In this document: positions 10,872 through 56,624 of the stretch, one piece after another
Numbering within the stretch: the stretch's first letter is position 1
Layout of the letters: each line of letters starts with the position of its first letter
Source of the DNA: Schmidtea nova
Lineage: Eukaryota
Length of the DNA: 64,000 bases
Reading direction: 5' to 3'
Assembly: GCA_044892505.1 (NCBI GenBank)
Contig: CM097882.1
Coordinates: 473,928,001-473,992,000 of the forward strand
Position numbers and translations under genes: made by a program
Notes under the pieces: model-generated
What the model was told of the DNA's origin: nothing
Database searches by the model: none
The model's input: only the letters and a program-made list of their open reading frames with translations

Positions 10872-11063
10872 NNNNNNNNNNNNNNNNNNNNNNNNNNNNN
10901 NNNNNNNNNNNNNNNNNNNNNNNNNNNNNNNNNNNNNNNNNNNNNNNNNNNNNNNNNNNNNNNNNNNNNNNNNNNNNNNNNNNNNNNNNNNNNNNNNNNN
11001 NNNNNNNNNNNNNNNNNNNNNNNNNNNNNNNNNNNNNNNNNNNNNNNNNNNNNNNNNNNNNNN
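10872..11063. other. assembly gap (192 N)
   Basis: Run of N. Confidence 1.
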
Positions 11064-17295: not shown

Positions 17296-18317
17296 TTTTT
17301 TAATATGAGCATAAACTGGTTGCGCATAATTTTCACCTGAGGGGCTCCATTCTGAAATGTTGCAAGGGTCTACAGAAAGCACGCGACGGCTCTACATTTA
17401 AATAGTTACTTTCCTTTGTTATTTTTGACTGTTTTTTTTTCAAATAATGATTCAAACGATTCAAATTTGAAGTAGTAAGAGAAAGCATAACTTTCAAAAT
17501 AATTAATTTTTTTATTTAAATTTTCAGGAATAATTTTTGGAAATTCAAAATTTAGCGTTTGACATTTTTACATTTTTAAATGTACAAATATTTATAATTT
17601 GGATAGTTTAAATATTTTTATTTTTAAAAAACATTCATTAAAAATAACAAAATTAAGAATACATCCAATTGAAGAGATTATAACATCAGCTTCGCTTCGT
17701 ACTGAATTGAAAAAATATATTCATAATAAAAAATCTGATTTAAAAAAATTTTCAGTAAAAGTTTAGAATTCACATTCATTTACTCTATCAGAGTTGTCAA
17801 ACATTGATCACGTAATAATTTTTAATGGATCGACAATAATAATTGTTTTACATTCTCTTTCAATTTACGATTTTCAACTACTATTAAAAACTATAAAATA
17901 AGAAGAACATGCTGTGTATGTGTGAATTAATTTCAATATAAAAACCTATTTTAAAATAGATTCATTTTTTCATGTTTTACGTGTTTTTTAGTTATTTTTA
18001 ATTAAAAATATCGTGTTATAATTTTTTATTTTATTATATCTTAATTCAATTTAATAGATTTAAGTAGTAATCTTTATTTTTATTTACCCATTATAATTTT
18101 TAAAAAAAGTTTTCTTATGCTAAATTTTAGAGAATTTTTATTGACAAAAGTAGATCTTACGTAAAAATTAGTTGACAAGTCTACCTATATATTTGTTGGA
18201 TTGTTGGTGAAATATAAATTTACCAATTAATTCTCTCACTCCAATCGTGCTTTATTTTACCCACAAATTAACAATTTTCAGACAATATAAACATTTATTA
18301 ATTATCACAAATAGCTA

Positions 18318-19366
18318 TGTTCGGTTCGTATCAGTGGTTTACGACGAACACAGAAATATATATATATATATGTTTTGATTTGATTTGATTTGATTATCGG
18401 ACTCCAAACGATAATCCGCTTATATAATTATAAATAAAATATATGTTTTAGGTTGGGTGTAAAGAAAAGAAAACCAATTCTTTTTAATAAGATTTATGGC
18501 GATTTATGTATAACAATGTACAATATAATAAAATAAAATAGCTGCAAAGCAAAAGTTAGAAAATCGGTTATTCAAACCGTCCTCAGAGTTTAAGAACGAA
18601 AGCTGGACCTAAAAGGCTCAACAGCTCCGACTAAATGAAAGGACAAAAGATGAGGGCTTTCCCGGTAGTTTAATCGCGATAGTGACAACCCAGAAATGGT
18701 TGTCACTGTGACCTAATAATTTCCCTTCTAATAATTTATTATTTAACGAATTTACTGAAGGGGAAAAATAGTAATATAACTATTTCCCCGTGATCGATTT
18801 ATAGAATTAAAGCAAACTAGAAAATTTACCAGCTAATAAAGATTATTCCAATTTCGGGAAATTATCACAAATGAAATTCAAGCTAAACTTCTCGTAATAC
18901 TTCTGCCGTAAAAATTAATTTCTCCAATTCACAAATCTGTAAAACTTAGATTCTAAAATTCACTTCTGTAAAATTTATGTTCTGCCTCGACTGATTTGAC
19001 AATCAGTTTATATACAAATTATTTTCTCTCATGTAGGTCTAGACGACCACCTATTACTAACTACGTGTAGGTCGAAATTGACCTTACAAAATATTAACTT
19101 TTAAAGTAATTTATTATTACTATATATATCTTATTATTACTATTTAAATTTCTCATGTATTTATTTATTACTATATTTATTATATACTATTTAATTATTA
19201 CTATATTTATTATATGCTATTTAATTATTACTATATTTAATCTATATTTATTTATAGTAATTATTTATTTATTTTTAGTATTTTTTAATTGCTATTTCTA
19301 TTTATTTATTTACTTATAATATTTAATTACAAAAAACCCGAGATCCCTTGATCTCGAACCCTAACA
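18318..19366 (-). repeat. 3' LTR (1,049 bp)
   Basis: Matches 32195-33243 except at 18850/32727 and 19021/32898; minus-strand ends TGTTAGGG...CGAACA. Confidence 0.98.
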
Positions 19367-19368: not shown

Positions 19369-19378
19369 TCTTCCCCCT
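19369..19378 (-). promoter_or_regulatory. polypurine tract
   Basis: AGGGGGAAGA on the minus strand, 2 nt before the 3' LTR. Confidence 0.85.
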
Positions 19379-19680: not shown

Positions 19681-21837
19681 CTAGTTATCCTTTGCGAATA
19701 GGTTTTGAGCTGCTCTCTTGCGAATATGCGCTTGCTCGTTCTTGATGCGATCTTCCACTATATCTGGTCTATAACTGACCACCAATGTTTCGCGTGTTTC
19801 GACTTCCTTATATACCAAAGACGAAATCACGTATGATTTTCCGTTGGCCTCCAATACGCCATAGTAAGGGAAGTTTGAAACTGATGATTGGTGTACCGGT
19901 TTCCCGTCGTATTCTTTTATCCGAGGTACCCAATTTCTCTCTGGTCGCTGCCAAAAACTAGGGTCTTCATTGTCCAAATCCTGGGGTGTCTTTGCTGAAT
20001 TTCCCGTTCCAACGAAATCCCCTTCTCTTATAATAATAGGTTCGCCCTTAACCTCAGGAATCTGTTCCATATCGGGTGGAACGAATGCTGTTTCGATTAA
20101 ATCTTTGTCTTCCGTCGAGAGGAGATTTGGTACTTTCTTCTTGATCTTTAGATCTTGTAACCTTACAACAGGTTCTTGACTTTTCTTTGGGGGTGACTTT
20201 TCTACTGAAATCAATTTTTTAAAAGTCTTAGTAACTTTTTCCAAGAGCTTGTTCTCTTTCTTTGGTGGATTTTCTGGCACGATCTTTGTAATTGTACGGC
20301 TGTCTCCGTGTAAAGTTAAACGCATCTCTGTTTGCTCCTCACCCTCGCTTTCGCAGGTGGCGTAATCGTCTTCATCAGCTAAGGATATAGCTGGAGGGGA
20401 TAGTGATTCTTCCTCAACTATCTTTTGCAATTTGGTTGATAATGGTTGTTCCTGGGGTAAGCTCTCAATAGCTTTCCTTTTACTCGTTTCTTGTGGCTGT
20501 ATTGTATGAACCATTTTGACTTCTGATGTAATCGTCCCACTACGATTACCTGGGGTGATGTCATCTACCCAAACTTCTCTCAGTTTAAGGTAAATATTAC
20601 GTGTCGTTTCCACGTCATTTTCCGTTTTCAGATCTGAACGGTTTAGTTCTTCCTTTTCGAGAATTGACTTTGATAAATGCGCGAGTCGATAATGTCCGTT
20701 ACATTTCTTTAGTTCTCTCGCTTCCAGGCATTTTGCTGCTCCTAGTTCCCTAATGCCCAAAACTCGTTGAGGGTGTAACTGGACTGCTTCCAAGAAATCG
20801 TTGACTTGGAGACCTATTAGGATTTTCCCATCACATAATTTTCTAATACGGTCTGCGCAATCCTCTCCGTCAAATTGTCCGATGATTTCTTTTTCGGTCA
20901 TAGCATGCGGGTGCGATTGGTAATGTTTGACCTGGTTTCTGGGTGTAACCACCGTGTTTAGTATTAAATCACCACAGTAGTTTGCTATCAAAACAGCCAC
21001 CAAGGCTGGCTTTAAATAATCTCGCAAAGTTGCGTAATGCGCTGCAATAAATATTGACAATCTATCTTCTTGATTGGGGTGCAAATTCATCCGAACAAAG
21101 GATTTGAATGACTTGAGATCGTTCTCATTCACATTATAGGTCCAGGCAGGTTCATTTTTCCACAATGATTGCACTGCCTTGCTGGGTTCCAAAATCTCTA
21201 ATACCACAATAGTATTATATCCGTCACATTGGATGGAGATATTCTTTTCTCTGCCATCTCCGTTACTAATTTCTAGAGTTGATTCTGGTTGAAGTAGGAT
21301 AGGTCCTGTGGCTCCTGCCATGAAGATGGTAAAGGGTTTATTGATCGCGTGAATTAGGAGATGGTGAGTAAATGTTGATCTGTTAAATTCCGCCATGTGT
21401 TCAGTCAACCGGGTGTTCTCACGGCTGGTAATTGTGACTATGCACATTTGTCTCTTAGGCGATCCAAGAAACTTAAAATTGTTCGGGATGCCGGTGCAGT
21501 GCCCGTAATACCAATAGCGACGACCTTTCCGTGCTTCTGCGGATATCGCTTTTTCGATGTTTCGATAAATCAGTTTTTCCTTCTGTACTGTTTGCACATC
21601 GATAGTGCTATAACGCTGCTTGTATTGTGACACTTGATGCTTCATATCTGAAAGAAAAATAATTAACGTTAATATCAGATATACTGATATGCCAATATTG
21701 GCTAAAAAGAAATGCATAAATCTCGATTTACGGGATCTACTTATGCTGTAAGTTAATGCTACTCGGAGCTCAACAAGATTATAGATTTTAATATATATAT
21801 ATAAATACAAATATGCGATTTTATCTGTAATTGTCAT
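19681..21837 (-). CDS. ORF3 accessory protein (718 aa from ATG 21837, or 654 aa from ATG 21645): degenerate AlkB-like(?) region, degenerate DEDDh ISG20/REX4-like exonuclease, acidic/Lys-rich tail
   Basis: Intact long ORF inside the LTRs. PALVAVLIANYCGDLILNTVVTP...KLCDGKILIG...RLAHLSKSIL...TENDVETTRNIY aligns with REX4/ISG20 motifs. Confidence 0.75.
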   Translation of the reverse strand: MTITDKIAYLYLYIYIKIYNLVELRVALTYSISRSRKSRFMHFFLANIGISVYLILTLIIFLSDMKHQVSQYKQRYSTIDVQTVQKEKLIYRNIEKAISAEARKGRRYWYYGHCTGIPNNFKFLGSPKRQMCIVTITSRENTRLTEHMAEFNRSTFTHHLLIHAINKPFTIFMAGATGPILLQPESTLEISNGDGREKNISIQCDGYNTIVVLEILEPSKAVQSLWKNEPAWTYNVNENDLKSFKSFVRMNLHPNQEDRLSIFIAAHYATLRDYLKPALVAVLIANYCGDLILNTVVTPRNQVKHYQSHPHAMTEKEIIGQFDGEDCADRIRKLCDGKILIGLQVNDFLEAVQLHPQRVLGIRELGAAKCLEARELKKCNGHYRLAHLSKSILEKEELNRSDLKTENDVETTRNIYLKLREVWVDDITPGNRSGTITSEVKMVHTIQPQETSKRKAIESLPQEQPLSTKLQKIVEEESLSPPAISLADEDDYATCESEGEEQTEMRLTLHGDSRTITKIVPENPPKKENKLLEKVTKTFKKLISVEKSPPKKSQEPVVRLQDLKIKKKVPNLLSTEDKDLIETAFVPPDMEQIPEVKGEPIIIREGDFVGTGNSAKTPQDLDNEDPSFWQRPERNWVPRIKEYDGKPVHQSSVSNFPYYGVLEANGKSYVISSLVYKEVETRETLVVSYRPDIVEDRIKNEQAHIRKRAAQNLFAKDN

Positions 21838-22787
21838 AATCTCGTCATCATAATCCCATCAACCGACTCAATAGCCTGACTGAAGAATAATTTCATCCAA
21901 ACTCCCATTGCTATCAATGTAGTGATCATAGCTAATACTGCTGACGTAATAATCCATACCCCAACGGGTAATTTTCCCAAGTGAGTAATGGGGTTTACTT
22001 CATTAATTCCACACTGACAACTTTTAATATTGCTTTCTGTTGCTACTGTTGGTTTTACCATCTTCAATCCTTTCAATCTCTGCCATATGGCAGGATGAAT
22101 GACGTAACTCTCTTTCCGTATTAAGGATGTAACCGATTTCGTTGTCGTCGATGATTGAGGTAATTTCAAAGAGATTACTTCATAAAATACCTCATTCCAT
22201 TCATCGACTCCGAGCTTTTGTTTATTATTCATATAAGTGATATGAGCTTCCCACTCCACTGAACTGTTCCACTTGAGATTTTGTTTCTCAATATCTTCAT
22301 TTAGCCACAATTCTTGTACTATTTCCTTGTCGGAATGGATTTCTATCTTTACTCTATCCACTCCTTGTTTTGGTTGGCTGAAGGTAATCATACCTTGTTG
22401 GATATTTATCCTAACTTTCCTTTTGAAATCTGCTGTCTTCAGCTTCCATTGTGACTTTGAAAAATCTGACCATCGTCCAAACATAAAATGTTGTACAAGT
22501 ATATCTAATAAATATTCCTTTTCTGCTCGTAAGTCCTTTATGACTTTCACTCTTGTGTTTGAATCCAATGTAAAATGGAAACAACGTCGTTCACAAAACG
22601 AGAACTTGAATTTTGTATCATTTTCAGCTAATGATATTATCCTAAATTCCTGGAAAGATCTTCTGAATGCGAGATCTTGAATTTGTACCGCCGTTGGAAC
22701 AAATGTCTTTACACAGGATATAAGGCAACTTATTATTACCAAAAACGTAACTGATTTTGGCACGCCTCTTGATCGTAATGGATATCT
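21834..22787 (-). other. post-integrase type I membrane-protein module of unknown family
   Basis: RYPLRSR, then hydrophobic SVTFLVIISCLISCVKT (22704-22754), sequons NDT and NSS, and TM VGVWIITSAVLAMITTLIAMGVWMKLFF (21882-21965). Confidence 0.7.
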
Positions 22788-25700
22788 GTCTGAGACTGGT
22801 TCTGACCCTTTATCCTCTTTTTCCTTAATCGGATCTTTCTCCGTGACCGCAACTTTCTTGCATCTGTTAGCATGTACCATTATTGGTTCAGCTTTTCTAT
22901 TTGCTACTAATTGCAAGATTAAATTCGTGTCTGTGGTTCTCAAAACCTCATACGGTCCTTTGAAGTTTCTCATTAATTTTGGTGATAAGCCCTTTTTATT
23001 ATAATGGCTTTCCAACATCACCTTGTCTCCAACTAACATGCCATGTCCTTTGGCTTTCTTATCATGATAATCTTTCGATGCTTCCTGACTGAATTTTATA
23101 CTAAGACCTGCTTTTGTCCATGCTTCTTGCATTCTTTCTCTCATTTCCATGAGGTAATTTTCTTGGTCTAGATACTGTGTTGCTTTTGGGAAGAACAACA
23201 AATCTATAGGCATTTTACTTTGCCTTAAATACATGAGATAGAACGGCGTTTGTCCCGTACCCTCATGAACAGCATTTCTATATGCGAATAGGCATGATGG
23301 AATATGTATATCCCAATCCGTTTGCCCTGAATTTACGTATGATGCTAGCATATTTGCAAGCGTTCCGTTAAATCTCTCTACCAATCCGTCTGTTTGTGGA
23401 TGATACGGAGAGGTATTCAATTTTAAAATGTCGAAATAATCATTTATTCCTTTTAACAGATTACTCATGAAATCTGCTCCTCTATCTGTTAGTAGTTTTG
23501 TAGGTACTCCATACCTAAAAACGATTTGTTCTACAAAAATCCTGGCTATCGTATCTGCCTTGTGATTCGGTATCGGATAAGCCTCCGGCCATTTTGTCAG
23601 ATAATCGCAAAATACTAATATGTATTTGTTACCACTATTTGATTCTTTGAATGGCCCTAAAACATCCATTGCCGTCATTTCCATCGGTGTGGATGGTACT
23701 GGCATTGGTTTCATTGGCACATGCGGTTTCTTCCCCGTATTTCTCCTGGTGATACAGATCTTACATGACTGACACCATTCCTGTACGTCTGGTTTGATTG
23801 TCGGCCAGAAATATTTCTGCTTCAACCTTGACAATGTTTTCCTGAAAGACAAATGCCCTCCCAGTGCTCCATCATGATATTGTAACATCAAGGCTTCCCG
23901 ATATTTCTTAGGGACCATTATGACATTATCCCTTACATCCACATATTTGACTAATCCTTCTTCTAGGATAAATTTGTCTCGATTTTTCTCCCAATATTTA
24001 TTAAATTCCGTCGGTATGAACTTTGCTTCTAAAGCCTGTCTGATTTGGTTTATCTCTTCATCCGATTGTTGTGCTGCCATTAAATCCGCGAGTCTGTTTG
24101 CTTCTCTTGTAAGTGCGAAGATTGTTCCTTCTAATCTTCCTTCTTTGACATCTTCTGCTTCATCACCCTGGTCCATTCGAGAAAATGCATCTGCATTCCC
24201 ATTTTGATGTCCTTTTCGGTAATGTATTTCGATGTCGTACGGCTGCAAGATCAATGCCCATCTAACCAATTTTGATGTATCCATAGTATGCTTTGTTAAC
24301 CACTGTAATGGTCTATGATCCGTATACACAATGATCTTTCGACCCCATAAATATGTCCTGAATTGGTGTATAGCATACACAATTGCTAATGCTTCTAATT
24401 CGATAACTGCGTAATTCTTTTCGTGTGGTTTTAATCCTCTGCTAGCATACGCTATGGCATATTCGTCTCCTAGGTCATCTCTTTGACCTAACACAGCACC
24501 AATACCCCGAGTGCTGGCATCTGTCATGACCAAAAATTGTTTCTCAAAATCTGGAAACCGTAATATAGGAGGTTCCACGAGCATTCTCTTTAGCATAGCA
24601 AATGCTTCCTGTTGCTCTTTTCCCCAAACAAATTTGACATTTTTGCCCTCTAATTGTGTCAGAGGAAATGCTATTGCCGAAAAGTTCCTGATGAACTTCC
24701 TGTAATATCCCACTAAGCCCAAAAACCCTTTTATATGTTTGACTGTCTTTGGCTCTGGAAAATTCTTTGCTTTCTCAACATTTGCTGGATCTGGCTTTAC
24801 TCCATCCTTCGAGATAATGTGACCGACATAGACTACCTCTGATTCGGCCCATTTACATTTCGATGGTTTTACCTTAAGATTTGCATTAATTAACCTTTTG
24901 AATACGTCCTCTAAATGTTCTAAATGTTTTTCCAAATCTGGAGAAAATACTATGATATCATCTATGTATACCATTGCATGATGAACATCCATTAACATTA
25001 GATTCATGGCTCTTTGAAACGTTGCCGGCGCTCCTGTGAGACCAAATGGCATTACTGTATATTCGAAGTGTCCAAGGCTTGTAGAAAAAGCCGTAATTGG
25101 TATTGTCTCCTCTTTTAACTTGATTTGGTAAAATCCCTTCTGAGCATCCATCACTGAGAAATATTTTGAATTTCTCATGCGTCCGTAAATGTAATCCAAT
25201 AATGGTAATGGGTGACTATCCTTGCAAGTTGCTTCGTTTACCATTCGATAGTCGTTGCATAGTCGTACTGTTCCATCCTTTTTTGCCACTACTATCATTG
25301 GTGACTGGTATGGTGATTTACTATGCCTGATGATGTTATGTTTTAACATCAGTTTTACCTGCTTATCGACAGGTTCTTCCAAGCTAAACGGAATTCGATA
25401 CGGTCTCAGCTTTATTGGTTTAATATTGTTAAGAACAATTTCATGTTCCAACAAGTTCGTCTTTCCCAGATCATATTCGTGCTTGGCGAATACTTGATCA
25501 TATTTTCTTAACAACATGTTTACTTGAATATTCTCTCTTCGTGAAAGAGCTTTACTATTTGCCGTTGGCGCATCATAGTACTCGATGTCTGGTTCTCTAT
25601 TCTCTGCCTTCACTGTCAGGACAGATCCCCCAATCGGTAATTGATCCGACTTTGATACTCTCCCTACTCTTGTATCTGGGTACAATTTTAATGGTTTTAT

Positions 25701-25811
25701 ATCTAAATTGGCTACCCGAATTGGTATTCTGCCATTTTCAACTTTACCAACGCTATGCGTAATTGGTAGATTATATTTTGCTGAGAACCTTTCATCTGGT
25801 TCAAATACAAC
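21834..25811 (-). CDS. pol: Pol: RT - RNase H - integrase (HHCC, DDE, GPY/F) - signal peptide - ectodomain - TM; in frame with ORF1 after a TAA
   Basis: RT: DAQKGFYQI, PFGL, YIDD (24957-24968). RH: TDAS, ELEALA, TDHRPL. IN: HDGALGGH..CQSCKIC, MDVLGP, TDRGADF, VERFNGTL, FKGPY. The ORF track start at 25685 is a TTG within a frame that is open from 25811. Confidence 0.97.
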   Translation of the reverse strand, partial: VVFEPDERFSAKYNLPITHSVGKVENGRIPIRVANLDIKPLKLYPDTRVGRVSKSDQLPIGGSVLTVKAENREPDIEYYDAPTANSKALSRRENIQVNMLLRKYDQVFAKHEYDLGKTNLLEHEIVLNNIKPIKLRPYRIPFSLEEPVDKQVKLMLKHNIIRHSKSPYQSPMIVVAKKDGTVRLCNDYRMVNEATCKDSHPLPLLDYIYGRMRNSKYFSVMDAQKGFYQIKLKEETIPITAFSTSLGHFEYTVMPFGLTGAPATFQRAMNLMLMDVHHAMVYIDDIIVFSPDLEKHLEHLEDVFKRLINANLKVKPSKCKWAESEVVYVGHIISKDGVKPDPANVEKAKNFPEPKTVKHIKGFLGLVGYYRKFIRNFSAIAFPLTQLEGKNVKFVWGKEQQEAFAMLKRMLVEPPILRFPDFEKQFLVMTDASTRGIGAVLGQRDDLGDEYAIAYASRGLKPHEKNYAVIELEALAIVYAIHQFRTYLWGRKIIVYTDHRPLQWLTKHTMDTSKLVRWALILQPYDIEIHYRKGHQNGNADAFSRMDQGDEAEDVKEGRLEGTIFALTREANRLADLMAAQQSDEEINQIRQALEAKFIPTEFNKYWEKNRDKFILEEGLVKYVDVRDNVIMVPKKYREALMLQYHDGALGGHLSFRKTLSRLKQKYFWPTIKPDVQEWCQSCKICITRRNTGKKPHVPMKPMPVPSTPMEMTAMDVLGPFKESNSGNKYILVFCDYLTKWPEAYPIPNHKADTIARIFVEQIVFRYGVPTKLLTDRGADFMSNLLKGINDYFDILKLNTSPYHPQTDGLVERFNGTLANMLASYVNSGQTDWDIHIPSCLFAYRNAVHEGTGQTPFYLMYLRQSKMPIDLLFFPKATQYLDQENYLMEMRERMQEAWTKAGLSIKFSQEASKDYHDKKAKGHGMLVGDKVMLESHYNKKGLSPKLMRNFKGPYEVLRTTDTNLILQLVANRKAEPIMVHANRCKKVAVTEKDPIKEKEDKGSEPVSDRYPLRSRGVPKSVTFLVIISCLISCVKTFVPTAVQIQDLAFRRSFQEFRIISLAENDTKFKFSFCERRCFHFTLDSNTRVKVIKDLRAEKEYLLDILVQHFMFGRWSDFSKSQWKLKTADFKRKVRINIQQGMITFSQPKQGVDRVKIEIHSDKEIVQELWLNEDIEKQNLKWNSSVEWEAHITYMNNKQKLGVDEWNEVFYEVISLKLPQSSTTTKSVTSLIRKESYVIHPAIWQRLKGLKMVKPTVATESNIKSCQCGINEVNPITHLGKLPVGVWIITSAVLAMITTLIAMGVWMKLFFSQAIESVDGIMMTRL

Positions 25812-28800
25812 TTATCCTTCCCACTGTTTGCTAGTGGACACGAAACATACTGTTTCTGCTCTAGGTGGTATTATCATCGTATGGTCGATGAAAACTGTAT
25901 CATCATTATAAACTTTTCTTTTCTTACCGGTTGATCTAACTAACAATCCGGTAGCACAGTCAAATACGACTCCTTTTAATCTTCTTAAAAAATCCATTCC
26001 TAGTAGACATTCTACTGGACAAGTTCTCATGACTATAATATCATGACGAAATTCTTGGTCACATAGCTTGATGTTACAAGCTAGAGTACCGATAATATTC
26101 AATGATGTGCCTGTAGCACCTGTTAGCGAAACTCTAGAGGTTTCCATTGATTCCAATTCTTTTTGATTTAATAGCGTTGCCTCTATGATAGTGCCGTCTG
26201 CTCCTGAATCTATCACTGCATTAACTGTGTGTCTGTTTATTTTTATCTTTATCATGGGTTTCTTCTCCAAGTTCACCCCATTTGCCATCAAAATAGTAGC
26301 ATGCGTTATCCCGATGGTATTTGCTCTGAATTTCTCAGCCTCATCTTGTTCGGTATCACTCAATTTTGGATTATATTCCTTGAATTTAGCTTTTATTGCT
26401 TCTAACGACTCGATAGGATACAGTTTCCCTTCATTTTCTAACGATAATGATATGCTTTTACCTGTTTCTCGAGCATCTTTGTCGGGAATTTGTTGATGTT
26501 TAGAAATGTACATTTTGTTTCTTGGTATGGTTAAAGCATAACTTGGCTTGCCTTCTCCTGATGTCTTTTGAAACTCTGGCGATTCCCCTTTTGGCGCTGT
26601 TGGTAAGCTTCTAAGATACGGCAATTGCATATATCTTGGGCTTCTTTTCAATCTAGGCGATGTTGTATTGATTGCAAATTTCTGGTCTGCACTATCGTAT
26701 TCATCTTCTGAAATCATACTTTTGTCGAAAATCTGTTTTGTCGCTTCGTAAGGTGGTTGATAATCCCGATATTTCATTTTCCTTAATTGATGATTCGGTT
26801 TTTTATTGTAGTTTCTTTTTCGACTTCTACTTTGCCTCTGAACTGTATTAAGAGAGTCTCCATTACCTCCTCCTTCAGAATTGTTATCGTCCCGATAACT
26901 TGTATTACCCTCCATTTCGATTCCAATAATCTCGTGTTTTACCAAGCTTCTCTGTTTGATTGTCTTTATTTCTTTACGATGATGTTTAAACAATGCAAAT
27001 TCCGCACACATAGGACACAATCCTAGTATCAACTTCCAAGACCATCCACCGATTTTGAATATACTGTATGTGGAAATTAATTGTGTTATTATTAACTTTA
27101 GAATTACGAATATTGCATATATTCCTGAGCAGCCTGCCACGAAAATACCAAAATTGGTAAACCTTCCCCATATTTTCATCATCACATTTTTAGCTGCTTC
27201 TTTATAATGATCTGGACCAAATAATAAATTGTAATCTGGTCTCATTTCGCTTGCTTGGTAAATTGTTCTTATGATTTCAGTGATACCTCTTTCTCTTACT
27301 TGAGGAAATAGCAACGTCTGTCTTGCCTCCTCAATGTCTGCTGGAGTGTAAATTCCTCCTTGTGATAATTCATCGAGTGATTTAAATTCCATGTTTTCCT
27401 CGAGTTTCGTGACTTCCAATGTTTCCACCTTTCTATTAGATGGTTTTCTGTCCGGTAATGAGATCCATCTATCATTTACCTTGTATAACGGTGATATTGC
27501 TGGATTGCAAATTGAAGGTTGAGGCTTTTGTTTTTCATCCAAAAGTCTCCTCGTTACTGGCATTACAAATCGTATCTTGTTTTGATATGACACTGGTAAT
27601 TCTAGAGTACATTCGTTATACCGTGTTAATTGTACCTCTATGGGTTGACATTGATAGCTGTATATAGCTTCCCCCATAATTCTGCCAAACATTCCATCTT
27701 CTAGCAACATAGGTGTCACTAGATCCGGATTCACGATTGATATCGCTAATCGATTTCGAACTATTTCGCGATTTAGTTTGCAATCATTGAGTATTACTTC
27801 CTGATACATTTCCTGCATTTGTCCTTGCAGATCATGATATAAATAATCTATTTTATTATTTATATAGTTCGTGATTTTGATATCCTGGCTGTGAATATTC
27901 TTGGCTTTTTGGATAAATGTTTTTGACAAATATAATCCTTTATAGTTGGTCTCGTACACCACTTTTCCGCATTTTGTCTTCTTATCTTTTCTGACAAATC
28001 TGATTGCATCTTTCTTATCTTCTGATACTAATACTAGAGGTGTGATTTCCTCACTAATATCCTCTTTTTGCTGTTTGTTGATCCTTTTCAACGTCTTTTC
28101 TTTATCCCAAATTCTTTCTCTTTTGGGTAAATCTCGATACTTTGTCCCGTTCAACTTATGGAAATTAATTTTCTTTAGTAATGACAATTCGCAATGGTCT
28201 AGTATTTGATCGTATAATAATGTAATGACCCCTGTTCTGCAGCTTCCAAATTTCGCGAGGCACTGAGGGTGTGCCATTAATCTTCCTGATAATACATCGA
28301 ACGTCCCTTCGTATTCTCTTAATTCGATTGAATAGTCCTCGATATCTACGACAAAACTTACCAACTCCGATCCGCGAGTTTTCTTTCTTCCCGTACAGGT
28401 ACCATCTGATCCAATTGATCCTCCTCTTGTAATGGTTACTCCCAGTGTTTTCCCTACTTCCGCGGCGATGGTTACCTCGTTATCGATTCTTAAAGTACCT
28501 TTTCGAAAGGCATCTAGACAATCTTCTGGCAATATGTTAACTGGTCTAGGTATTAGAGTGGCTGATAGAAAAGCTGTATAGCTGTGTGAACCACAATAAT
28601 ATTCAAACGTTGCTCTTTGGACTCTACATTCTCTTATCTTAGTTCTGAAGAATTCACTTTCTTGGTAAACATAGTATTCGACCTTTTCTCCTGTTTGGAC
28701 TTTCTCTGGGTATGCCTCTTTGCACTCAATTGCATCCACGAGCGAATATATCCGAGCCAACTTTGGATCACTGCAATCAAACGCTGTCATTGTGTTTGTC

Positions 28801-31800
28801 TGTTTCATTATCCCCATCATTACTAAAAACATTAATATCATATTTGTCATATTCCCCATTCCTCCATTTCCGAGGTGGTTGTTATTCATAGCCTCTTCCA
28901 CAAATTCATATCGTGGTTTATGTTTCTCCTCTTCCCAGAAGTTATTTTCACTCATCCACGTTCCGAGATAATGCTCCGTTATCTCCGTGATCTGGTCTAT
29001 TTCTCGATTAATAAGTTTCTTCTCATTGCCTGCGCGGGCTAAGGCATCTTGAATCAACATAGATAATGCTGTCACTATTTTTCCTTTAGATAACCCATCT
29101 TGTATGAGTGTCTCTAACATACTCTGTATCTCGTTTTGAGGTACCCCTTTAGGTAATCTCCTCATCGTCTTCGCGATTGACTGTGTCACTTTATCCACTT
29201 GAATTCCTTTAATCCGAGTGATCTGCCATTCCGGCTTTAATATTCCTATGATCTGTTTGATTCTCTTCCATGTCAGAGATTTTTCTGGTATATGTACACC
29301 CTCGTCTCTCATATCAACATCCCTGGCTATTCCTGACAGGGTTTTCATCTGAACCTGTTTAATGGTTTCTTGGTTTAATTGCTCCGTGGGTGGAGGTTTC
29401 ATTTGATCTTTCCTAGGCCTTCCTCGCCTATCTTTCTTTGTCTGCCATGCTGGCCTGACAGTTTCTACCGCCTGAGAAGTTGAAGCACCCACGTTAGTTT
29501 CCTCATTATTGCGCCTGATTTCCTCTTCTCCGTGATTATCGGCATCGATATCTACATTAAGTGGTTGTGTCTCAACGTTACCAATGACCATTTCATCTGG
29601 TAATCGTAATGCTGACCATTGAGATTCAGGTGGCTCTACGGGAATGATTGCTACCGTTGTAGTTTCAAATGGTAGACATCCCACATCTACTAAATATTCA
29701 TCATCATCCACTTGCCCTCCATGAATCATAATCAAGAATATACCAGTAGTCTGCCCAGTATCTATTAAATCCTTTCTCAACGTTATCACTTTGCTAAAAC
29801 AACGATATAACCTCGTCATGGGTTCTTTTCCCGATATTCGAATGTCTAAAGTTATCATGCCTTGTCGGTGTGCTTGATGACGTATTGCTGTTCCATTTTT
29901 TCTCATTAACATTTTTATTTCTGTTTGAAAAGAACTAGTTTCTTTTACTACAGGTAGTAATATAGGAATTATACTCTCCAATGATTCTACTGGTATGCGC
30001 AATACCAACATCCAGTCTAATATTTCCTTGATTGTTTCTCCATCCCTCGGAGATTTCTGCAACTCTATCTTCAGACGTTGCTCTATTTGTTGAACTTCCT
30101 CCAACTGTGCGATTTCCATCTGTGTGAGTAGAAACACACTGTCTTGATCCACTACTGGGACCGATATTCCTGTCAGTTTCGTTGTGAGTTTCGTTACCTT
30201 TCCTGGTAATACACCATTTTGTAGTAGTGTTTCTCCAACTACTAACTTTTCTCCATATAAGTAAAAATCATATCTATTATGTTTCAATTTCATCATTGTA
30301 TCTGACAACTTGTCTGTTCGACATCTTACATTCATGTCGATGTTAAACTCCTGCTCCTGAGGAAGTTTTATGTTTAAATGCGAATCCTGAAGATCCCATT
30401 CATGTTCCATTGCTGTTCCTATCTTTCGTAGGATTTTGTGTATGTCGTTATGATACCTTGGATCATCTTCGACCTGAGATATTAACTGTAATATCTTTCC
30501 AATTTCACTATTCTTGATCTCACCTTGTGATAATTTCTCTAATTCTCTAGTCAGTCTCTGCTGATACTCATATCTGGAATCCACCAGTTTTAAACATTTT
30601 GCTAGGGTATCTGACCCTTTCTTGGCCTTTGTTTCCTTGAACAAAGCCTGGTCGAACTCGCTCAGTATGGTACTCATACTGGGTTCGTCATCATTATCAG
30701 AATTTGTTTCTGATTCTATTACCTCCTGATTCTCGCTGCTGGAATCCATGGGTTCACTATTACCTTGCTCATCTGTGTAAGCATCATGATTTTTCTCAGC
30801 TGAAATCATCAAAACTGTTCCTTGCCCAACTGTGTGAGCATCATCGCTTTCCTCAATGGGATTCATTATAACTGTTCCTCGCCCATCCATGTGAGCATGA
30901 TTTTTCTCAGCTGAAATCATAAAAACTGTCTCTTGCCCAACTGTGTGAGTCTCATTTATTTCTTCAATTGTATTCATCAAAACTGTTCCTCGCTCATCTG
31001 TGTGAGCATGATTTTTCTCAGCTGAAATCATAAAAACTGTATCATCTCGATCCATTAGCCGTGCTAATCGATTTTTCTCCTCCTGGATTTCCATTTCCAG
31101 TTGTTGCAAATACGTCAATTCTTTATCGTGATTGACCATGAACGTAGTTTTTGGCTTGCTGATATTACCACCATTGGTAGTCCTATTATTCGTATTATTA
31201 CTCTGATTTTGAGGACACGACCTCAGTATATGCCCGAATTTTCCACATCCGTGACATTTTATCTTTCCTGATGAATTAACATCATCCCTTTTAATATTAA
31301 AATTCCCATTCGTGGGGAGATTCTTAACTCTACAAACGGAAGCCACATGCCCTCTGCGTTTGCATTTATCACACTGCAAGTTCGTGACTCTACAGTTCTC
31401 AACACTATGATTATTCATACCACATTTGGTACACTGAATACCCCTACGAGTATCAGCTACCTTCTTACTGTGGCAATCTTTTGATATGTGCCCTTTCTTA
31501 TGGCAGTTAAAACATTCAATGGCTGGCTTCTCATTATTTACCATAAATGATGTAGCCTTTTCTAAGCTGCTTTCGATTACGACAGCTTTTCTTGTTAATT
31601 CCCAAAAATCATCTCCCGTGTGGAGAATCAATGCATTTCTCATTACATTTGTGAATCCAGCTAATAATTGGTCTTTAACCATAGCTTTAGTTGCATCATT
31701 CCAGGTAGTTCTGAGCCCAAATGCTCTTTCTGCTAATAACAATAATTGATAGGAAAATTCTCCTACATGCTCATTGGCATTCTGTTTTCTATGGTAAAAC

Positions 31801-32102
31801 TGTTGTCGGAAAATTCTACTTGAATCTCCCGGTAATATTCTAGCTGTTAGTGATTCTCTCATCTTTTCCCATGTAGCTGGTTTATCTGCTGCTGGTAACG
31901 CCATAATATCATTGTAGTTTTCCCTTGCCATACCCTTAAGGTAAATTGGCAGTCTTTGTATCATTATTGCATCTGGATACCCATAGGCCTTTGCCATCTG
32001 ATAATACTCTGACATAAACTCCGGAAATTCCCCTGGATCTCCGCTAAATGCCTTGACAGGTAAAGCGGGATATCTAGCAAAAACATTATTCTCTTCAGCC
32101 AT
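25812..32102 (-). CDS. gag: Gag-Env-Pro polyprotein (2,096 aa from ATG 32102)
   Basis: Uninterrupted frame: capsid (FSGDPGEF..YLKGMA..TWEKMRESL..RKQNANEHVGEF), 4 CCHC knuckles, accessory region, glycoprotein, and protease DSG...LLGMDFL. Confidence 0.95.
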   Translation of the reverse strand: MAEENNVFARYPALPVKAFSGDPGEFPEFMSEYYQMAKAYGYPDAIMIQRLPIYLKGMARENYNDIMALPAADKPATWEKMRESLTARILPGDSSRIFRQQFYHRKQNANEHVGEFSYQLLLLAERAFGLRTTWNDATKAMVKDQLLAGFTNVMRNALILHTGDDFWELTRKAVVIESSLEKATSFMVNNEKPAIECFNCHKKGHISKDCHSKKVADTRRGIQCTKCGMNNHSVENCRVTNLQCDKCKRRGHVASVCRVKNLPTNGNFNIKRDDVNSSGKIKCHGCGKFGHILRSCPQNQSNNTNNRTTNGGNISKPKTTFMVNHDKELTYLQQLEMEIQEEKNRLARLMDRDDTVFMISAEKNHAHTDERGTVLMNTIEEINETHTVGQETVFMISAEKNHAHMDGRGTVIMNPIEESDDAHTVGQGTVLMISAEKNHDAYTDEQGNSEPMDSSSENQEVIESETNSDNDDEPSMSTILSEFDQALFKETKAKKGSDTLAKCLKLVDSRYEYQQRLTRELEKLSQGEIKNSEIGKILQLISQVEDDPRYHNDIHKILRKIGTAMEHEWDLQDSHLNIKLPQEQEFNIDMNVRCRTDKLSDTMMKLKHNRYDFYLYGEKLVVGETLLQNGVLPGKVTKLTTKLTGISVPVVDQDSVFLLTQMEIAQLEEVQQIEQRLKIELQKSPRDGETIKEILDWMLVLRIPVESLESIIPILLPVVKETSSFQTEIKMLMRKNGTAIRHQAHRQGMITLDIRISGKEPMTRLYRCFSKVITLRKDLIDTGQTTGIFLIMIHGGQVDDDEYLVDVGCLPFETTTVAIIPVEPPESQWSALRLPDEMVIGNVETQPLNVDIDADNHGEEEIRRNNEETNVGASTSQAVETVRPAWQTKKDRRGRPRKDQMKPPPTEQLNQETIKQVQMKTLSGIARDVDMRDEGVHIPEKSLTWKRIKQIIGILKPEWQITRIKGIQVDKVTQSIAKTMRRLPKGVPQNEIQSMLETLIQDGLSKGKIVTALSMLIQDALARAGNEKKLINREIDQITEITEHYLGTWMSENNFWEEEKHKPRYEFVEEAMNNNHLGNGGMGNMTNMILMFLVMMGIMKQTNTMTAFDCSDPKLARIYSLVDAIECKEAYPEKVQTGEKVEYYVYQESEFFRTKIRECRVQRATFEYYCGSHSYTAFLSATLIPRPVNILPEDCLDAFRKGTLRIDNEVTIAAEVGKTLGVTITRGGSIGSDGTCTGRKKTRGSELVSFVVDIEDYSIELREYEGTFDVLSGRLMAHPQCLAKFGSCRTGVITLLYDQILDHCELSLLKKINFHKLNGTKYRDLPKRERIWDKEKTLKRINKQQKEDISEEITPLVLVSEDKKDAIRFVRKDKKTKCGKVVYETNYKGLYLSKTFIQKAKNIHSQDIKITNYINNKIDYLYHDLQGQMQEMYQEVILNDCKLNREIVRNRLAISIVNPDLVTPMLLEDGMFGRIMGEAIYSYQCQPIEVQLTRYNECTLELPVSYQNKIRFVMPVTRRLLDEKQKPQPSICNPAISPLYKVNDRWISLPDRKPSNRKVETLEVTKLEENMEFKSLDELSQGGIYTPADIEEARQTLLFPQVRERGITEIIRTIYQASEMRPDYNLLFGPDHYKEAAKNVMMKIWGRFTNFGIFVAGCSGIYAIFVILKLIITQLISTYSIFKIGGWSWKLILGLCPMCAEFALFKHHRKEIKTIKQRSLVKHEIIGIEMEGNTSYRDDNNSEGGGNGDSLNTVQRQSRSRKRNYNKKPNHQLRKMKYRDYQPPYEATKQIFDKSMISEDEYDSADQKFAINTTSPRLKRSPRYMQLPYLRSLPTAPKGESPEFQKTSGEGKPSYALTIPRNKMYISKHQQIPDKDARETGKSISLSLENEGKLYPIESLEAIKAKFKEYNPKLSDTEQDEAEKFRANTIGITHATILMANGVNLEKKPMIKIKINRHTVNAVIDSGADGTIIEATLLNQKELESMETSRVSLTGATGTSLNIIGTLACNIKLCDQEFRHDIIVMRTCPVECLLGMDFLRRLKGVVFDCATGLLVRSTGKKRKVYNDDTVFIDHTMIIPPRAETVCFVSTSKQWEG
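25956..26260 (-). other. retropepsin aspartic protease domain
   Basis: AVIDSGADGTII (catalytic D at 26208-26210), flap TGATGTSL, CLLGMDFL. Confidence 0.95.
26988..28850 (-). other. env: envelope glycoprotein domain, chuvirus/Jingchuvirales G-like (class III-like fusogen), embedded in ORF1
   Basis: Signal-like MILMFLVMMGIM, then AFDC, YYCGSHS, GSIGSDGTCTG, CKLNREI, GEAIYSYQCQP, CTLELPV, GGIYTPADIE, LLFP; TM FGIFVAGCSGIYAIFVILKLII (27087-27153). Confidence 0.85.
29640..30563 (-). other. duplicated helical + ubiquitin-like module
   Basis: QRL..EL.K...(D/E)I..(I/L).RK.GTA occurs twice, each followed by a 72-73 aa segment matching the ubiquitin-fold pattern. Confidence 0.6.
30762..31040 (-). repeat. 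in-frame 111-bp (37-aa) tandem repeat x2.5 built from 18/19-aa subunits
   Basis: TVFMISAEKNHAH...TV(L/I)MN(T/P)IEE...HTVGQ repeated. Confidence 0.9.
31215..31514 (-). other. four CX2CX4HX4C zinc knuckles (nucleocapsid)
   Basis: CFNCHKKGHISKDC, CTKCGMNNHSVENC, CDKCKRRGHVASVC, CHGCGKFGHILRSC. Confidence 0.95.
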
Positions 32103-32173: not shown

Positions 32174-32191
32174 ATCACGTCGGGCTCACCA
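32174..32191 (-). promoter_or_regulatory. primer-binding site, tRNA-Trp type
   Basis: TGGTGAGCCCGACGTGAT, 3 nt after the 5' LTR. Its complement ATCACGTCGGGCTCACCA differs at one base from the animal tRNA-Trp 3' end as I recall it (ATCACGTCGGGGTCACCA). Confidence 0.85.
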
Positions 32192-32194: not shown

Positions 32195-33243
32195 TGTTCG
32201 GTTCGTATCAGTGGTTTACGACGAACACAGAAATATATATATATATATGTTTTGATTTGATTTGATTTGATTATCGGACTCCAAACGATAATCCGCTTAT
32301 ATAATTATAAATAAAATATATGTTTTAGGTTGGGTGTAAAGAAAAGAAAACCAATTCTTTTTAATAAGATTTATGGCGATTTATGTATAACAATGTACAA
32401 TATAATAAAATAAAATAGCTGCAAAGCAAAAGTTAGAAAATCGGTTATTCAAACCGTCCTCAGAGTTTAAGAACGAAAGCTGGACCTAAAAGGCTCAACA
32501 GCTCCGACTAAATGAAAGGACAAAAGATGAGGGCTTTCCCGGTAGTTTAATCGCGATAGTGACAACCCAGAAATGGTTGTCACTGTGACCTAATAATTTC
32601 CCTTCTAATAATTTATTATTTAACGAATTTACTGAAGGGGAAAAATAGTAATATAACTATTTCCCCGTGATCGATTTATAGAATTAAAGCAAACTAGAAA
32701 ATTTACCAGCTAATAAAGATTATTCCTATTTCGGGAAATTATCACAAATGAAATTCAAGCTAAACTTCTCGTAATACTTCTGCCGTAAAAATTAATTTCT
32801 CCAATTCACAAATCTGTAAAACTTAGATTCTAAAATTCACTTCTGTAAAATTTATGTTCTGCCTCGACTGATTTGACAATCAGTTTATATACAAATTCTT
32901 TTCTCTCATGTAGGTCTAGACGACCACCTATTACTAACTACGTGTAGGTCGAAATTGACCTTACAAAATATTAACTTTTAAAGTAATTTATTATTACTAT
33001 ATATATCTTATTATTACTATTTAAATTTCTCATGTATTTATTTATTACTATATTTATTATATACTATTTAATTATTACTATATTTATTATATGCTATTTA
33101 ATTATTACTATATTTAATCTATATTTATTTATAGTAATTATTTATTTATTTTTAGTATTTTTTAATTGCTATTTCTATTTATTTATTTACTTATAATATT
33201 TAATTACAAAAAACCCGAGATCCCTTGATCTCGAACCCTAACA
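32195..33243 (-). repeat. 5' LTR (1,049 bp)
   Basis: Direct repeat of 18318-19366, adjacent to the PBS. Confidence 0.98.
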
Positions 33244-35162
33244 GCTACACAGATTGCAATGACACGACCAATTCAATATCACTACAAATTACTATACAGT
33301 TCTTATTACGACATTTCGTGAAGAATAGAACTAACGTATAATGCCTAAAATTTACGATCACTGACTGCTGACTTGGATTCGACAATTGATTAACAAATCT
33401 GATTGTTCTGTTGTTTTGATTCAGTAATGTACTAGACAGGTTGCGACTCATTTCTTACTCGATTTATTCGTGTTTTGCTATGTTTTATTTAATCTTCTCA
33501 AATTTTCCTTTGATTCCACGTTTTACAATAATAAACTCTATTTAACTCAATAAGTTTCTTTACCAGTTTCCTCTACTACAAATTTGTATTTCTCCTATCT
33601 GACTTTCTTTTTTCTAATTTTTAATTTCACTAATCTAAATTTCTAATTCATCTGCTGTGGTTTCTCTTTTTTTTATTTTGTCATTTTCTGATACTTAAGA
33701 TTATCTTTGTTTTTCTATTTCTCTGCCCCAGCATACTCCCTACTTTCTTCCTAGCTCCTGCATTATCTCTGAGAAGCTGTTGAGATATGAATTTTCCTCT
33801 TGTTTTGTTTTTAATTTTCGAATTCCCTTTTCCATTTGTTCTTGTTAATTGGCAATGAACTTTTAAATTACTTTAATTTTTCTATTATCTTCTCCTTTCT
33901 TAATTTTTACTCTCTTCTCTTCTCCGAATTCTAGAACATCACATAAGTTACTCTGTCAATTCCTCCAATGATTTTATTTATTTTTGATATTATTTAATTT
34001 TTTTTTATGTATATCAACTACAAAAACCGATGAACATTTCTGATTTTAGAAATAGAGATATTACTAAATGACGAAACGGTAGCCTGTGAAAAATTAGTCT
34101 GTCTTTCTCGTATCTCTAAATAACATAAAGCAGTGTTTTGCAACCTTTAGGCACATGAAATCCACGTGAAATTTTGATTGTGTACGTGAACCAAAATTAT
34201 AATTTAATATTTTTTAACAAATCCGGAACATAGTTACGGTAGTTTTATTAAATTTGATCTATTGCCTGAAAATATGAAAATATATATGCTAAAATGGATT
34301 TATTTACTTCTGTAAAATAATTAAAGCTTCACTCAGTATTTGATATTGGAGGACGCAGGAGATTTTTAGAGTTGATAGATATTTTGGTTTAATAATCATC
34401 ATTGTCAGAAATACAGCTTCATAAAAATATGAAGTAGAAAATGGCAAAAGTATGTCCAGAGCCATTTCTGAAAATTATTGAAATTCTGTTGAGTCAAAAT
34501 AGATCGTAAAATTTTTGGACAAGATCTTATCGTTCGGTAATTCAATTTTGAGTTCTGTTCTCAACAATATTTGTTCTTTTACGTTGACTTGGAAATGTAA
34601 ATCAGTTCTACCCCTGTTAAAATGCTTGCATAATTTTAGATCGTAACTCAGCAGTTTGTTTTGCAGAGCGGTTAACGAAATAAATTTGAGCGAAAACTAA
34701 TTGAAATGTTACGGTTTATAAACTTTTTTACATTCAATGAAAAATCATAGAAAACAAATTTAATTATTTTTATTATATTTTTACCCCAATAAAAGCAGCT
34801 GAACATATTGTTCATCATAAAATTATTTATAAAATATATTTTTTTTAATTATGCTGGCTTTCGCCTGTAGTTGTAATTTTAATGGATTAAAACCACTAAA
34901 ACTTTTTAACTTCTTTTAATATAATTTAAATCTTTTTTACAATTATACATTATGATAAAATAATTTACAATAATTCGATCAAATTATATAGAGCACAGTC
35001 AATTTAATCAAATTAAAAAGGCATCACGGGTGTGGGCCGCCAACCTGTGTTAATAAACACTGTTAATAGACGATGTTATTTTGTTTTAAAACAAATATTA
35101 GTTTTAGAAATAATTTGGGTTCTCATAAAAATATTTAAATTATTTAAATCTTAGTTACATTA

Positions 35163-41720: not shown

Positions 41721-42017
41721 ACGTCTTGTGAAGAGACTTTCGTCGATTTCTGTTACCAATTAAAACTCTCAAATCATTGCGTGAGGGTGTATATGTCGTT
41801 CAATTTAAGTTAAATGCTTAATCAGTTAACAGTTTACTGCAAGTGCTGACTGTTTTGAGCGTCGCTTAAATAAGTGTAATATCCACCAGTCAATTCTTAT
41901 TTGCATTAGATTAACTCATACACCTGTTTATTTGTTTTATATCGAGCATTTTTTTACTTTTTTTAGTGAAAAATATACGATTTTAGTTCATCTTATATTT
42001 AAATAATTAGTCAGATA

Positions 42018-43290
42018 CGTGGTGCGGTCAAAGAGTTTCCGGCCTACCCCAGAAAAAAGTAAAAGCAAGAAACCACAACTATATTTTTATAAACACCAAT
42101 ACCATTACTTCTCGAACCAATTACCTCCGGCATCGACACACATCTGCCAACGACCAGGGAGGGCTTCGAATGCCCCATGGTAAAATGAGTGTGGTAGCTG
42201 GTCAAAAATCCGATTTACAGCCTCCTCTAAATCGCCTGCATCCATGAAATACTGTCCCCTCAGTTGCTTCTTCAATTCCGTAAATAGGCAGTAATCTGAG
42301 GGAGCCAAATCAGGGCTGTATGGAAAGTGGCTAATGATCTCGAAGCCACAGTCATTGAGTTTTGCTTGGGCAATGCGGCTGGTGTGAACTAGCGCATTGT
42401 CATGTTAAAACCAGTGAGGGAGGCCATATGGTTTTCGCCACTTTCTACGAGCTTGCTCAACGAGATTACCGCAATATTGTCCGCTGATTGTCCGTCCCTT
42501 CTCAAGAAAGTCGGTGAGGATCACTCCCTTATGACTCCAAAACACAGTCAACATAAGTTCCCGTCTGTGCGACATTCCGGAACGAGACTTCCAAACTTTT
42601 CCTTCTTCCGGCTTTCTCCATTCCATAGACTCCCGCTTTGATTCAGGCTGATGTAGGGGCAACTGTGTCTCATCAACAGTGAGGATGTTTTGGATAAATC
42701 TTTCTCCATACTTGCGGTAAATGGCGAGGTTCATGAGACACGCATTCTTTCGGTTATTGTACATCTCAGTTGTCAAAAAGCGAGACACAAAGCGAGACAC
42801 CACCTTGTTAAAGTTAAGGTCTTTCAATAATTGCACTACGTACCGTGTGATATTTGTAGGGATTCTTCCAGCTGCCTGGGAGTTATACGGCGATCTTCCA
42901 GTACCATTTTCTCCAATTTTTCCTTCACATCTTCATTTCTCGAAGTCGTTGGTCGACCCTCTCGTTCCTCATCTGACACACTTTGTGGACCCCGTTTGAA
43001 TTCAGCAATCCAAAACTTGATGGTAGACTGAGAGGGACACTTTTCGCCATAGGCTCGATTCAGATTTGCCATGATTTCAACACAAAAGCGAATAGCACTG
43101 CGATACTCAATTTTTTCCAGCGAATGCACTTGCAACGACATTTCCATCTGCAACAGATAAAGTAAATGGATTAGGTCAATAAGATTTTCAACATGAAATT
43201 GTCAATAAATTTCCAATAAAATAAACCTATTTCCATTAAAAAATCAATTTGTTAAGTAGGGTAGGCCGGAAACCTTTTGACCGCACCACG
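42018..43290 (-). mobile_element. full-length (1,273 bp) defective mariner (DD34D)
   Basis: 32-bp TIRs CGTGGTGCGGTCAAA(GA/AG)GTTTCCGGCCTACCC (30/32) with TA on both sides. Transposase from ATG 43147 to stop 42105 with TVDET, HDNAR and YSPDLAPSDY; at least two frameshifts (about 42836 and 42405). Confidence 0.95.
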
Positions 43291-43794
43291 TATGTGATTA
43301 AATTAAACATTGTATATTTTTAAATTTTAAATTTATTTTCACAAAACTTGAGGTTGTATGAGGTACACTGCAAGCAGTTAACTATCGTTCAACTGAAATG
43401 AAAGAGTAAAATAGTGGCTAGTCCATCAAAGAAATACAAATTTTAGAGTCTAAAGTGATATCTAAATTTTTTTTTATTTATTACAATTCATAAATAATGC
43501 ATAATTAGTTATCAGCATTTGTCCAGCATTGGTATGTCTGACTGTTATAAACCAGGATGTTTTATTTTTAACTTAGATTGAGAAGTGTAGACTCAATAGA
43601 GAGCGTAAAGCAATATTGCAGAAAAAGCAAGCAATATTTTCAATTTTAAAGAGACCAATTCGCAAATAAAATCATTTTTTTAATTATTAAAATTACAATT
43701 AAATTTATTTAAAATAATCCATATTAAACGTATTTTGATAACGATCCATAACTTGATACACCAACTGTCTGTAATTAAGGGCAACAAATACATA

Positions 43795-56030: not shown

Positions 56031-56624
56031 TCACACAACAAATTCACTAAGTGATGTTGATAAATTTCTTTTTTCATCTTTACCCAAATTTGGAAACCTA
56101 TTTATAATATATTTATTCTTAACATCTGATGCAAGCCAGAATTTAATACCAAATTTATCGGGTTTATTTGGCATATATTGCGTAAATCTACATCTAGCTT
56201 TAGTGGGAAATAGTTGTTCATCAATTGTAATATTCGCATTTGGTTTATAGCAATTTTGGCGATTTTCAATAAACATATCCCACACTGTTGATATCATAGC
56301 AAATTTATCCGTTTGTAAGTGTTTATGTCCAGTTTTTTATCAAATCGAATGAATCTTAAAATATCCGTAAACTATTTTCTAGCCATGGTTGATGAAAAAA
56401 AGGTTGATACAAATTTCTTATTCCATAAATATGAAAGGTTCAAATATTTTGCTTCCTATGCCTCTCGTGCACACAGTATTTGCAATGAAAGCCTTGATTT
56501 TTGTTTTCGCGAGGCTCCATTCCCCCACTCCTTGGTAAGACTCTAACTCTGTGCAAGTTATTATATGCTTTATAATACGATCGTCAATTATCAATGAAAA
56601 TGCACTACTAACTCTAACTTTCAT
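56031..56624 (-). pseudogene. piggyBac transposase remnant (PGBD4-like)
   Basis: ITIDEQLFPTKARCRFTQYMPNKPDKFGIKFW; TDKFAMISTVWD. Confidence 0.85.

Follow-up and report, generated by a model that had tools for sequence, protein, structure and literature searches.

A REX4/ISG20-like pseudo-exonuclease joined to a predicted double-stranded beta-helix in the accessory ORF of an env-bearing Ty3/Gypsy element from Schmidtea nova

We analyzed a 64,000-nucleotide stretch of Schmidtea nova DNA (assembly GCA_044892505.1, contig CM097882.1, positions 473,928,001 to 473,992,000; hereafter the window) and found that a retroelement on its minus strand carries an accessory ORF whose middle domain is, judged by its residues, homologous to the REX4/ISG20 group but not one of its active members, with sequence, profile, and predicted structure together supporting a DEDDh (DnaQ-like) exonuclease fold of that family. 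This domain stands behind an N-terminal domain that we predict, from structural models, to be a cupin/AlkB-type double-stranded beta-helix (DSBH) without a conserved metal triad, and the element that bears both is a young, multi-copy Ty3/Gypsy element of the known GAG-ENV(gB-type)-POL kind.

LTR comparison and Pfam searches over the window delimited the element, 14.9 kb long and of Ty3/Gypsy type, that encloses the accessory ORF on the minus strand (Table 1). Its primer-binding site is presumably a complement of tRNA-Trp, its ORF1 matches PF13975 (E 2e-12) and PF00098 in addition to the fusion-protein family PF24664, and an Rfam search over the element gave no match. The features by which gB-type GAG-ENV-POL errantiviruses are recognized were all found, i.e., LTRs, the order PR-RT-RH-IN, and a class III env between gag and pol. 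The element family is multi-copy, as in three runs contigs from one study, possibly the one from which the window derives, covered all 30 bins of the element, their summed depth being high and their variants numerous. A metagenome scan for the accessory family returned four loci (L001 to L004), all with intact members, two of them long (L001 and L002) and two too short for context; in both long loci an env-PR-RT-RH-IN polyprotein, with pol 47-49% identical to that of the window, is followed downstream by an intact member placed as in the window. The genomic context of the dead form is that of the window element, and the context of the intact form is that of L001 and L002.

Table 1. Positions in the window of the element, its accessory ORF, and the catalytic codons
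Feature	Position	Strand	Details
5' LTR	32195..33243	-	1049 nt, TG...CA; 2 mismatches vs 3' LTR
3' LTR	18318..19366	-	1049 nt; pair comparison
Target-site duplication	18314-18317 and 33244-33247		GCTA, 4 nt; flanks the element
Primer-binding site	32174..32191	-	3 nt inside from 5' LTR; begins TGG
Polypurine tract	19369..19378	-	
ORF1	25812..32102	-	Gag with CCHC knuckles, long unannotated region, class III fusion protein, aspartic protease
Class III fusion protein (Monjiviricetes/chuvirus-type, gB-like)	about 26958-28850	-	PF24664, E 2.5e-90
ORF2	21834..25811	-	in phase with ORF1; RT, RNase H, and integrase, followed by a C-terminal extension holding two hydrophobic stretches
ORF1/ORF2 stop	25812-25814	-	single, in frame
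Accessory ORF ("ORF3")	19681..21645	-	654 aa from M72; relatives have a matching Met
Splice-acceptor-like pyrimidine tract and CAG	21648..21659	-	ends 2 nt upstream of the likely initiation codon
N-terminal domain, predicted double-stranded beta-helix	21187..21645	-	model; OsALKBH1 and ALKBH6 matches
REX4/ISG20-family DEDDh pseudo-exonuclease domain	20557..21060	-	residues about 267-434
C-terminal part	19684..20556	-	long variable linker and short block common to closest relatives
ExoI D -> A272	21043-21045	-	catalytic position
ExoI E -> H274	21037-21039	-	catalytic position
ExoII D -> F355	20794-20796	-	catalytic position
ExoIII H -> L410	20629-20631	-	catalytic position
Last catalytic D = D415	20614-20616	-	kept

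At the stop between ORF1 and ORF2, every covering contig differs within the codon (four of four runs, one study), and the stop looks private to the window copy; read-through was considered for it and rejected on that ground. Given this, and given that the ORF1 and ORF2 equivalents form one polyprotein in L001 and L002, the frame that a sequence-only reading had numbered ORF3 probably counts as the second ORF in this element family.

Several further features were recorded in the element and around it. Past the integrase, about 300 aa (window 21834-22800, minus strand) contain a hydrophobic stretch resembling a signal and, at the C-terminal end, a membrane anchor, and have no Pfam match; the polyproteins of L001 and L002 end in the same layout, and this extension may represent a second surface protein. 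The interval that separates env from the Gag knuckles (about 28850-31100, minus strand; about 750 aa) gave no Pfam match; a 57/111-nt repeat occupies 30728-31006 within it, and a run of 107 residues resembles L001 (E 8e-9). The L001 and L002 polyproteins carry two to three protease-like stretches compared with one in the window, L002 has a membrane-protein-like insert between them, and L001 has an extra charged ORF of 222 aa, without Pfam match, between pol and the DSBH-DEDDh ORF (L001:9207-9875). Elsewhere, the window contains a mariner-type remnant with 43-nt inverted ends (42007-43301; Transposase_1, E 4e-12), a decayed DNA transposon and Polinton-like pieces, seen as fragments with similarity to DDE_Tnp_1_7 (E 6e-18) and to DNA_pol_B_2 (E 2e-7) (56031-59405), a tandem array of a 120-nt unit (62259-63640), and two assembly gaps (2542-2687 and 10872-11063).

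The open frame around the accessory ORF spans 19681-21858 on the minus strand (725 codons), but M72 (21645), rather than the beginning of the frame, is the most likely start of the protein, since the proteins of relatives begin at a Met matching M72, GC content is 0.28 upstream of it vs 0.42 downstream, and a pyrimidine tract with CAG ends 2 nt upstream. From the same three observations we infer that the 654-aa protein is made from a spliced mRNA. An AG stands 0-2 nt before the ATG at two of the four related loci (L001 and L002) and is absent in L003 and L004. Initiation at M8, which would overlap the ORF2 stop, is disfavored, and two contigs that span the M8/ORF2-stop region are 2 nt shorter than the window. 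The C-terminal part of the protein gave no Pfam match.

The sequence-only reading had proposed a REX4/ISG20-like DEDD fold within 20581-21057, and this stretch is indeed stop-free on the minus strand (477 nt, 159 aa), with all four motifs that the reading had quoted present in its translation. Pfam returned no match for either the accessory ORF or this stretch. Searched with phmmer against 177,635 PDB sequences, the stretch alone matched ISG20L2 (7yw5) at E 3.5e-4, with the next match at E 0.29; a profile built from the query and its five closest relatives matched ISG20L2 at 2.7e-10, and a 60-row family profile matched ISG20L2 (2.5e-32), ISG20 (5.2e-23), and SDN1 (8.4e-19). The best ESM Atlas match was "RNA exonuclease 4-like" (0.95), and RNase_T was found in 23 of 30 matches. 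An AlphaFold2 model of residues 72-440, made on the 60-row alignment, is a compact two-domain structure (pLDDT 92, pTM 0.89) whose exonuclease domain aligns with ISG20 (1wlj) at Z 18.7 (rmsd 2.8, 161 aligned; next match 14.7) and, by Foldseek, with 7yw5 at E 2.9e-8 and a TM to target of 0.84; sequence identity to ISG20L2 is 18%. The same two folds were modeled separately for an intact relative, P0010 (pLDDT 71; ISG20 Z 19.2). The proposed fold is thereby upheld, with a small correction of its extent, the domain running over residues about 267-434 (Table 1).

Alignments to ISG20L2 and ten REX4-like proteins leave the window copy with one of the five residues of the catalytic D-E-D-H-D set, exactly as had been read from the sequence: both ExoI positions (A272, H274), the ExoII position (F355, with an Asp, D354, one residue before it), and ExoIII His (L410) are replaced, and D415 alone is kept. 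Private substitutions of the window copy fall at codons 317 and 319 and none at the catalytic codons, among the 40 of 841 read differences listed.

A phmmer search over 1.84 billion representatives yielded 76 matches, 34 of them at E ≤ 1e-10; RNase_T is matched at E ≤ 0.05 by 35 of the 76, the five closest not included. After 11 matches were dropped for coverage below 80%, six for gaps in catalytic columns, two as seemingly chimeric or frameshifted, and one as a fungal REX4, the query and the remaining 56 gave an alignment of 57 rows. All five catalytic residues are kept in 35 rows, two in one row, one in three, and none in 18, and no row keeps three or four. The intact rows have the ExoIII His throughout (35/35) and either D (16) or E (19) at ExoII, a column that is D/E in none of the 22 dead rows. 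Whether the loss is common to homologues had been named beforehand as a check, and it is: 22 of the 57 rows keep at most two of the five residues, and 21 of these form one clade. The dead rows are open frames of 299-1113 aa, the N-terminal domain is present in 19 of them and in 29 of the 35 intact rows, and at 22 non-catalytic columns (at least 80% conserved in intact rows) they average 66% identity vs 6% at the four catalytic columns that satisfy the same threshold, a figure that is biased by the query itself being dead. Median pairwise identity within the exonuclease domain is 24% among dead and 35% among intact rows. A word-based homologue search with residues 130-440 retained none of 2768 candidates, its family-profile version gave only three matches, and scans of viral contigs yielded no relatives, neither among the 24 pattern matches of the intact alignment nor in the single one of the dead alignment. 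Of 29 clusters looked up, two bore a name, one of them uninformative and the other that of a fungal protein.

With the catalytic columns removed and the tree rooted on 10 REX4-like proteins (nine fungal-type REX4 and one from a tapeworm), all 57 rows fall into one group (100/100), in which the intact rows prove paraphyletic; of the 22 dead rows, 21, with the query among them, unite in a single clade (97/90) nested among the intact ones; P0051 stands apart, and a single origin for the 22 dead rows together is not rejected (p-AU 0.19). The tree shows intact DEDDh members to be basal and the dead ones to derive from them once or twice, with the caveat that long branches could draw dead rows together. 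Because dead members share only about 24% identity yet keep both domains, the dead domain is likely a long-selected pseudo-enzyme rather than a product of decay, and the pseudo-nuclease status suggested earlier is backed both by the alignment and by the spread of catalytic loss through relatives. Neutral decay of a once-useful nuclease, the least probable account that we weighed, would explain the private changes of the window copy (the ORF1/ORF2 stop and codons 317 and 319), but it fits poorly with a loss common to 22 relatives whose identity goes down to 13% while their frames stay open, with the lack of intermediates keeping three or four catalytic residues, and with a multi-copy family whose LTRs differ at 2 of 1049 sites.

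As to function, we tentatively favor, at a probability of roughly 45%, the reading that the dead domain has been retained to bind RNA ends without cutting them and thereby to protect the element's RNA against host nucleases or small-RNA silencing. The sequence-only reading had suggested an RNA-binding or decoy protein, such as a silencing suppressor, which stands as a conjecture. An ancestor of the element would have captured a host REX4-like gene, and the exonuclease would have been fused behind a cupin/AlkB-type domain and used as an active 3'-5' exonuclease; in the dead branch, selection would have continued on the scaffold and the substrate-binding surface. The accessory protein would be made from a spliced subgenomic mRNA, and its dead domain would, by analogy with metazoan Maelstrom, bind nucleic-acid 3' ends without cleaving them. 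This reading is favored because P306-R307 (invariant in dead rows) and R370 (86%), which we take as putative substrate-side residues, are kept, and because the ExoI Glu column is basic (R/K/H) in 12 of 22 dead rows, all of these counts coming from rows that are related and not independent; Maelstrom supplies a precedent. Against it, the exonuclease-domain net charge (dead +3.3 vs intact +1.0) does not differ significantly (p 0.08) and the query domain has only +1, the faster evolution of the dead domain (24% vs 35% identity) would fit relaxed constraint too, and the function could instead reside in the N-terminal domain, which is conserved in intact and dead rows alike.

That the dead domain is still a nuclease, with its active site relocated, is very unlikely. 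D354 and E413 adjoin the old site and have acidic residues in four of the five rows of the query's subclade, and most dead rows are acidic at D330/E331/E371/D432; but both ExoI metal ligands are gone, D354 and E413 are not conserved across the dead clade, and the other acidic columns are kept in intact rows as well and, from the secondary structure, would lie at helix caps. There is also no Maelstrom-type ECHC zinc site, H318 being the sole Cys/His column at 40% or more in dead rows and being present in intact rows too.

The sequence-only reading captured the exonuclease fold and missed both the N-terminal domain and the intact sister group. For the N-terminal domain there was no ESM Atlas match and only a sub-threshold Pfam match, and a family could not be found by sequence. 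Its model aligns with OsALKBH1 (Z 10.8, rmsd 3.3, 139 aligned) and ALKBH6 (Z 10.7), with Z values of about 10-11 that do not separate AlkB-family, prolyl-hydroxylase, and cupin structures, and the P0010 model aligns with ALKBH6 (Z 12.1), Ofd2 (11.7), and a cupin (11.2). Two independent models point in this way to a DSBH (Z 10-12, 130-145 aligned) with AlkB tied with cupins, and the defining residues place the accessory protein in neither AlkB nor Maelstrom. The domain keeps an IPN motif (P125, N126), H170, and E221, with H170 in 27 of 29 intact and 14 of 19 dead rows and E/D221 in 25 of 29 and 19 of 19. Across the 48 rows no conserved columns correspond to an HxD/E...H or HxH...H metal triad with a 2OG-binding Arg, only H170, E221, and R136 being found.

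These observations bear on an alternative in which the N-terminal domain is the functional part, by binding a ligand or modified base or through an atypical metal site, with the dead exonuclease retained only as its structural partner; we regard it as unlikely, although foremost among the rivals. It would account for P125, N126, H170, and E221 being kept in intact and dead rows, for DSBH identity being 18% in both groups while exonuclease identity falls, and for the compactness of the two-domain model (pTM 0.89), and an active AlkB ORF is described for orchid Gypsy elements in the available part of the source (PMC9289625). It is weakened by the lack of a conserved HxD...H or HxH...H metal motif, by the lack of a family match by sequence or in the Atlas, and by Z values of 10-12 that do not discriminate AlkB from prolyl hydroxylases or cupins. 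A further match of the model is to poxvirus DSBH proteins of the C4L/C10L-like kind (E 2.1e-4). Such poxvirus proteins are non-enzymatic immune antagonists, and the match agrees with another alternative, a protein decoy: by imitating a host DEDD nuclease, the dead domain would sequester partners in RNA decay or small-RNA trimming and would not itself have to bind RNA. A fold kept with its chemistry lost, and faster sequence change as expected of a host-facing surface, would suit such a decoy, but the dead domain has little sequence identity with host REX4-like proteins (18% to ISG20L2), and we rank this account, doubtful as it is, behind the one centered on the N-terminal domain.

To our knowledge, few accessory proteins of animal LTR retrotransposons are known and almost none that act in counter-defense. 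It is conceivable, if improbable, that RNA-end binding by the dead form belongs to an undescribed counter-defense module of env-bearing invertebrate retroelements, in which a cupin/AlkB-fold domain is joined to a captured REX4/ISG20-like nuclease and which exists in active and dead forms, the dead one being a double pseudo-enzyme that reads and caps (possibly modified) RNA ends and blocks small-RNA silencing as a mirror of Maelstrom. If true, the module would be a rare transposon-encoded silencing antagonist in animals. Intact and dead versions in the same place of the same kind of element form a natural pair, which makes the question of degrading vs shielding testable with purified proteins.

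No description of the DSBH + DEDDh accessory family was found in the literature searched, which, with most subscription papers and Repbase outside its scope, yielded no DEDDh, cupin-exonuclease, or DSBH-DEDDh accessory ORF for Gypsy elements; this domain architecture, absent from the searches made, is an addition. The closest cellular proteins, REX4, ISG20, and ISG20L2 (DEDDh 3'-5' exoribonucleases, RNase_T PF00929), resemble the window domain in fold and non-catalytic motifs and are its best PDB matches, whereas the window domain lacks four of the five catalytic residues, is fused to a DSBH, and is borne by an element. Among mobile elements, bdelloid Juno and Vesta LTR elements and Terminons encode, according to the available text, an RNase D-like DEDDy ORF3 with invariant residues intact, placed like the window ORF between pol and the 3' LTR (PMC5408684). 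The rotifer precedent invoked by the sequence-only reading stands as a DEDD-superfamily accessory ORF with intact residues and fails as to subfamily: the ExoIII His is present in 35 of 35 intact relatives, whose best matches are DEDDh, and the bdelloid elements, as far as that text covers them, lack a true env and are DEDDy, whereas the window ORF is REX4-like DEDDh, two-domain, of a dead clade, and in an env-bearing element (PMC5408684).

The element itself agrees in gene order, in a class III fusogen related to chuvirus glycoproteins, and in a length of 14-15 kb with the GAG-ENV-POL HSV/gB-type errantiviruses described from nematodes, bryozoans, and flatworms (PMC13524379). The main text of that paper has no occurrence of exonuclease, DEDD, AlkB, nuclease, or dioxygenase and includes no accessory ORF of the DSBH-DEDDh kind (PMC13524379). 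Planarian Burro elements are reported to have an in-frame env between gag and pol (PMC6431247, available part), and the accessible text of the Troyka paper holds no relevant term (PMC12440569).

On the host side, metazoan Maelstrom, EXD1, and Exuperantia likewise have a DEDD fold without catalytic residues and active relatives elsewhere, and Bombyx Maelstrom is DEDD-less, inactive, and binds ssRNA (PMC4408791, sections available); our model aligns with the pseudo-nuclease structure 5l80 at Z 10.5. These are, however, host genes on the defense side and of a different DEDD subfamily, and the ECHC zinc site of Maelstrom is absent in the window protein. Among parasites, the AlkB ORF of orchid Gypsy elements and the ExoN of arenavirus NP, an active DEDDh domain tied to immune suppression (PMC7968707), are DSBH and DEDDh domains that mobile elements are proposed or shown, in the parts of the sources available, to use against host surveillance (PMC9289625, PMC7968707). 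Both of those are described there as active and single-function, whereas in the window clade the two folds are joined and both are without canonical catalytic motifs.
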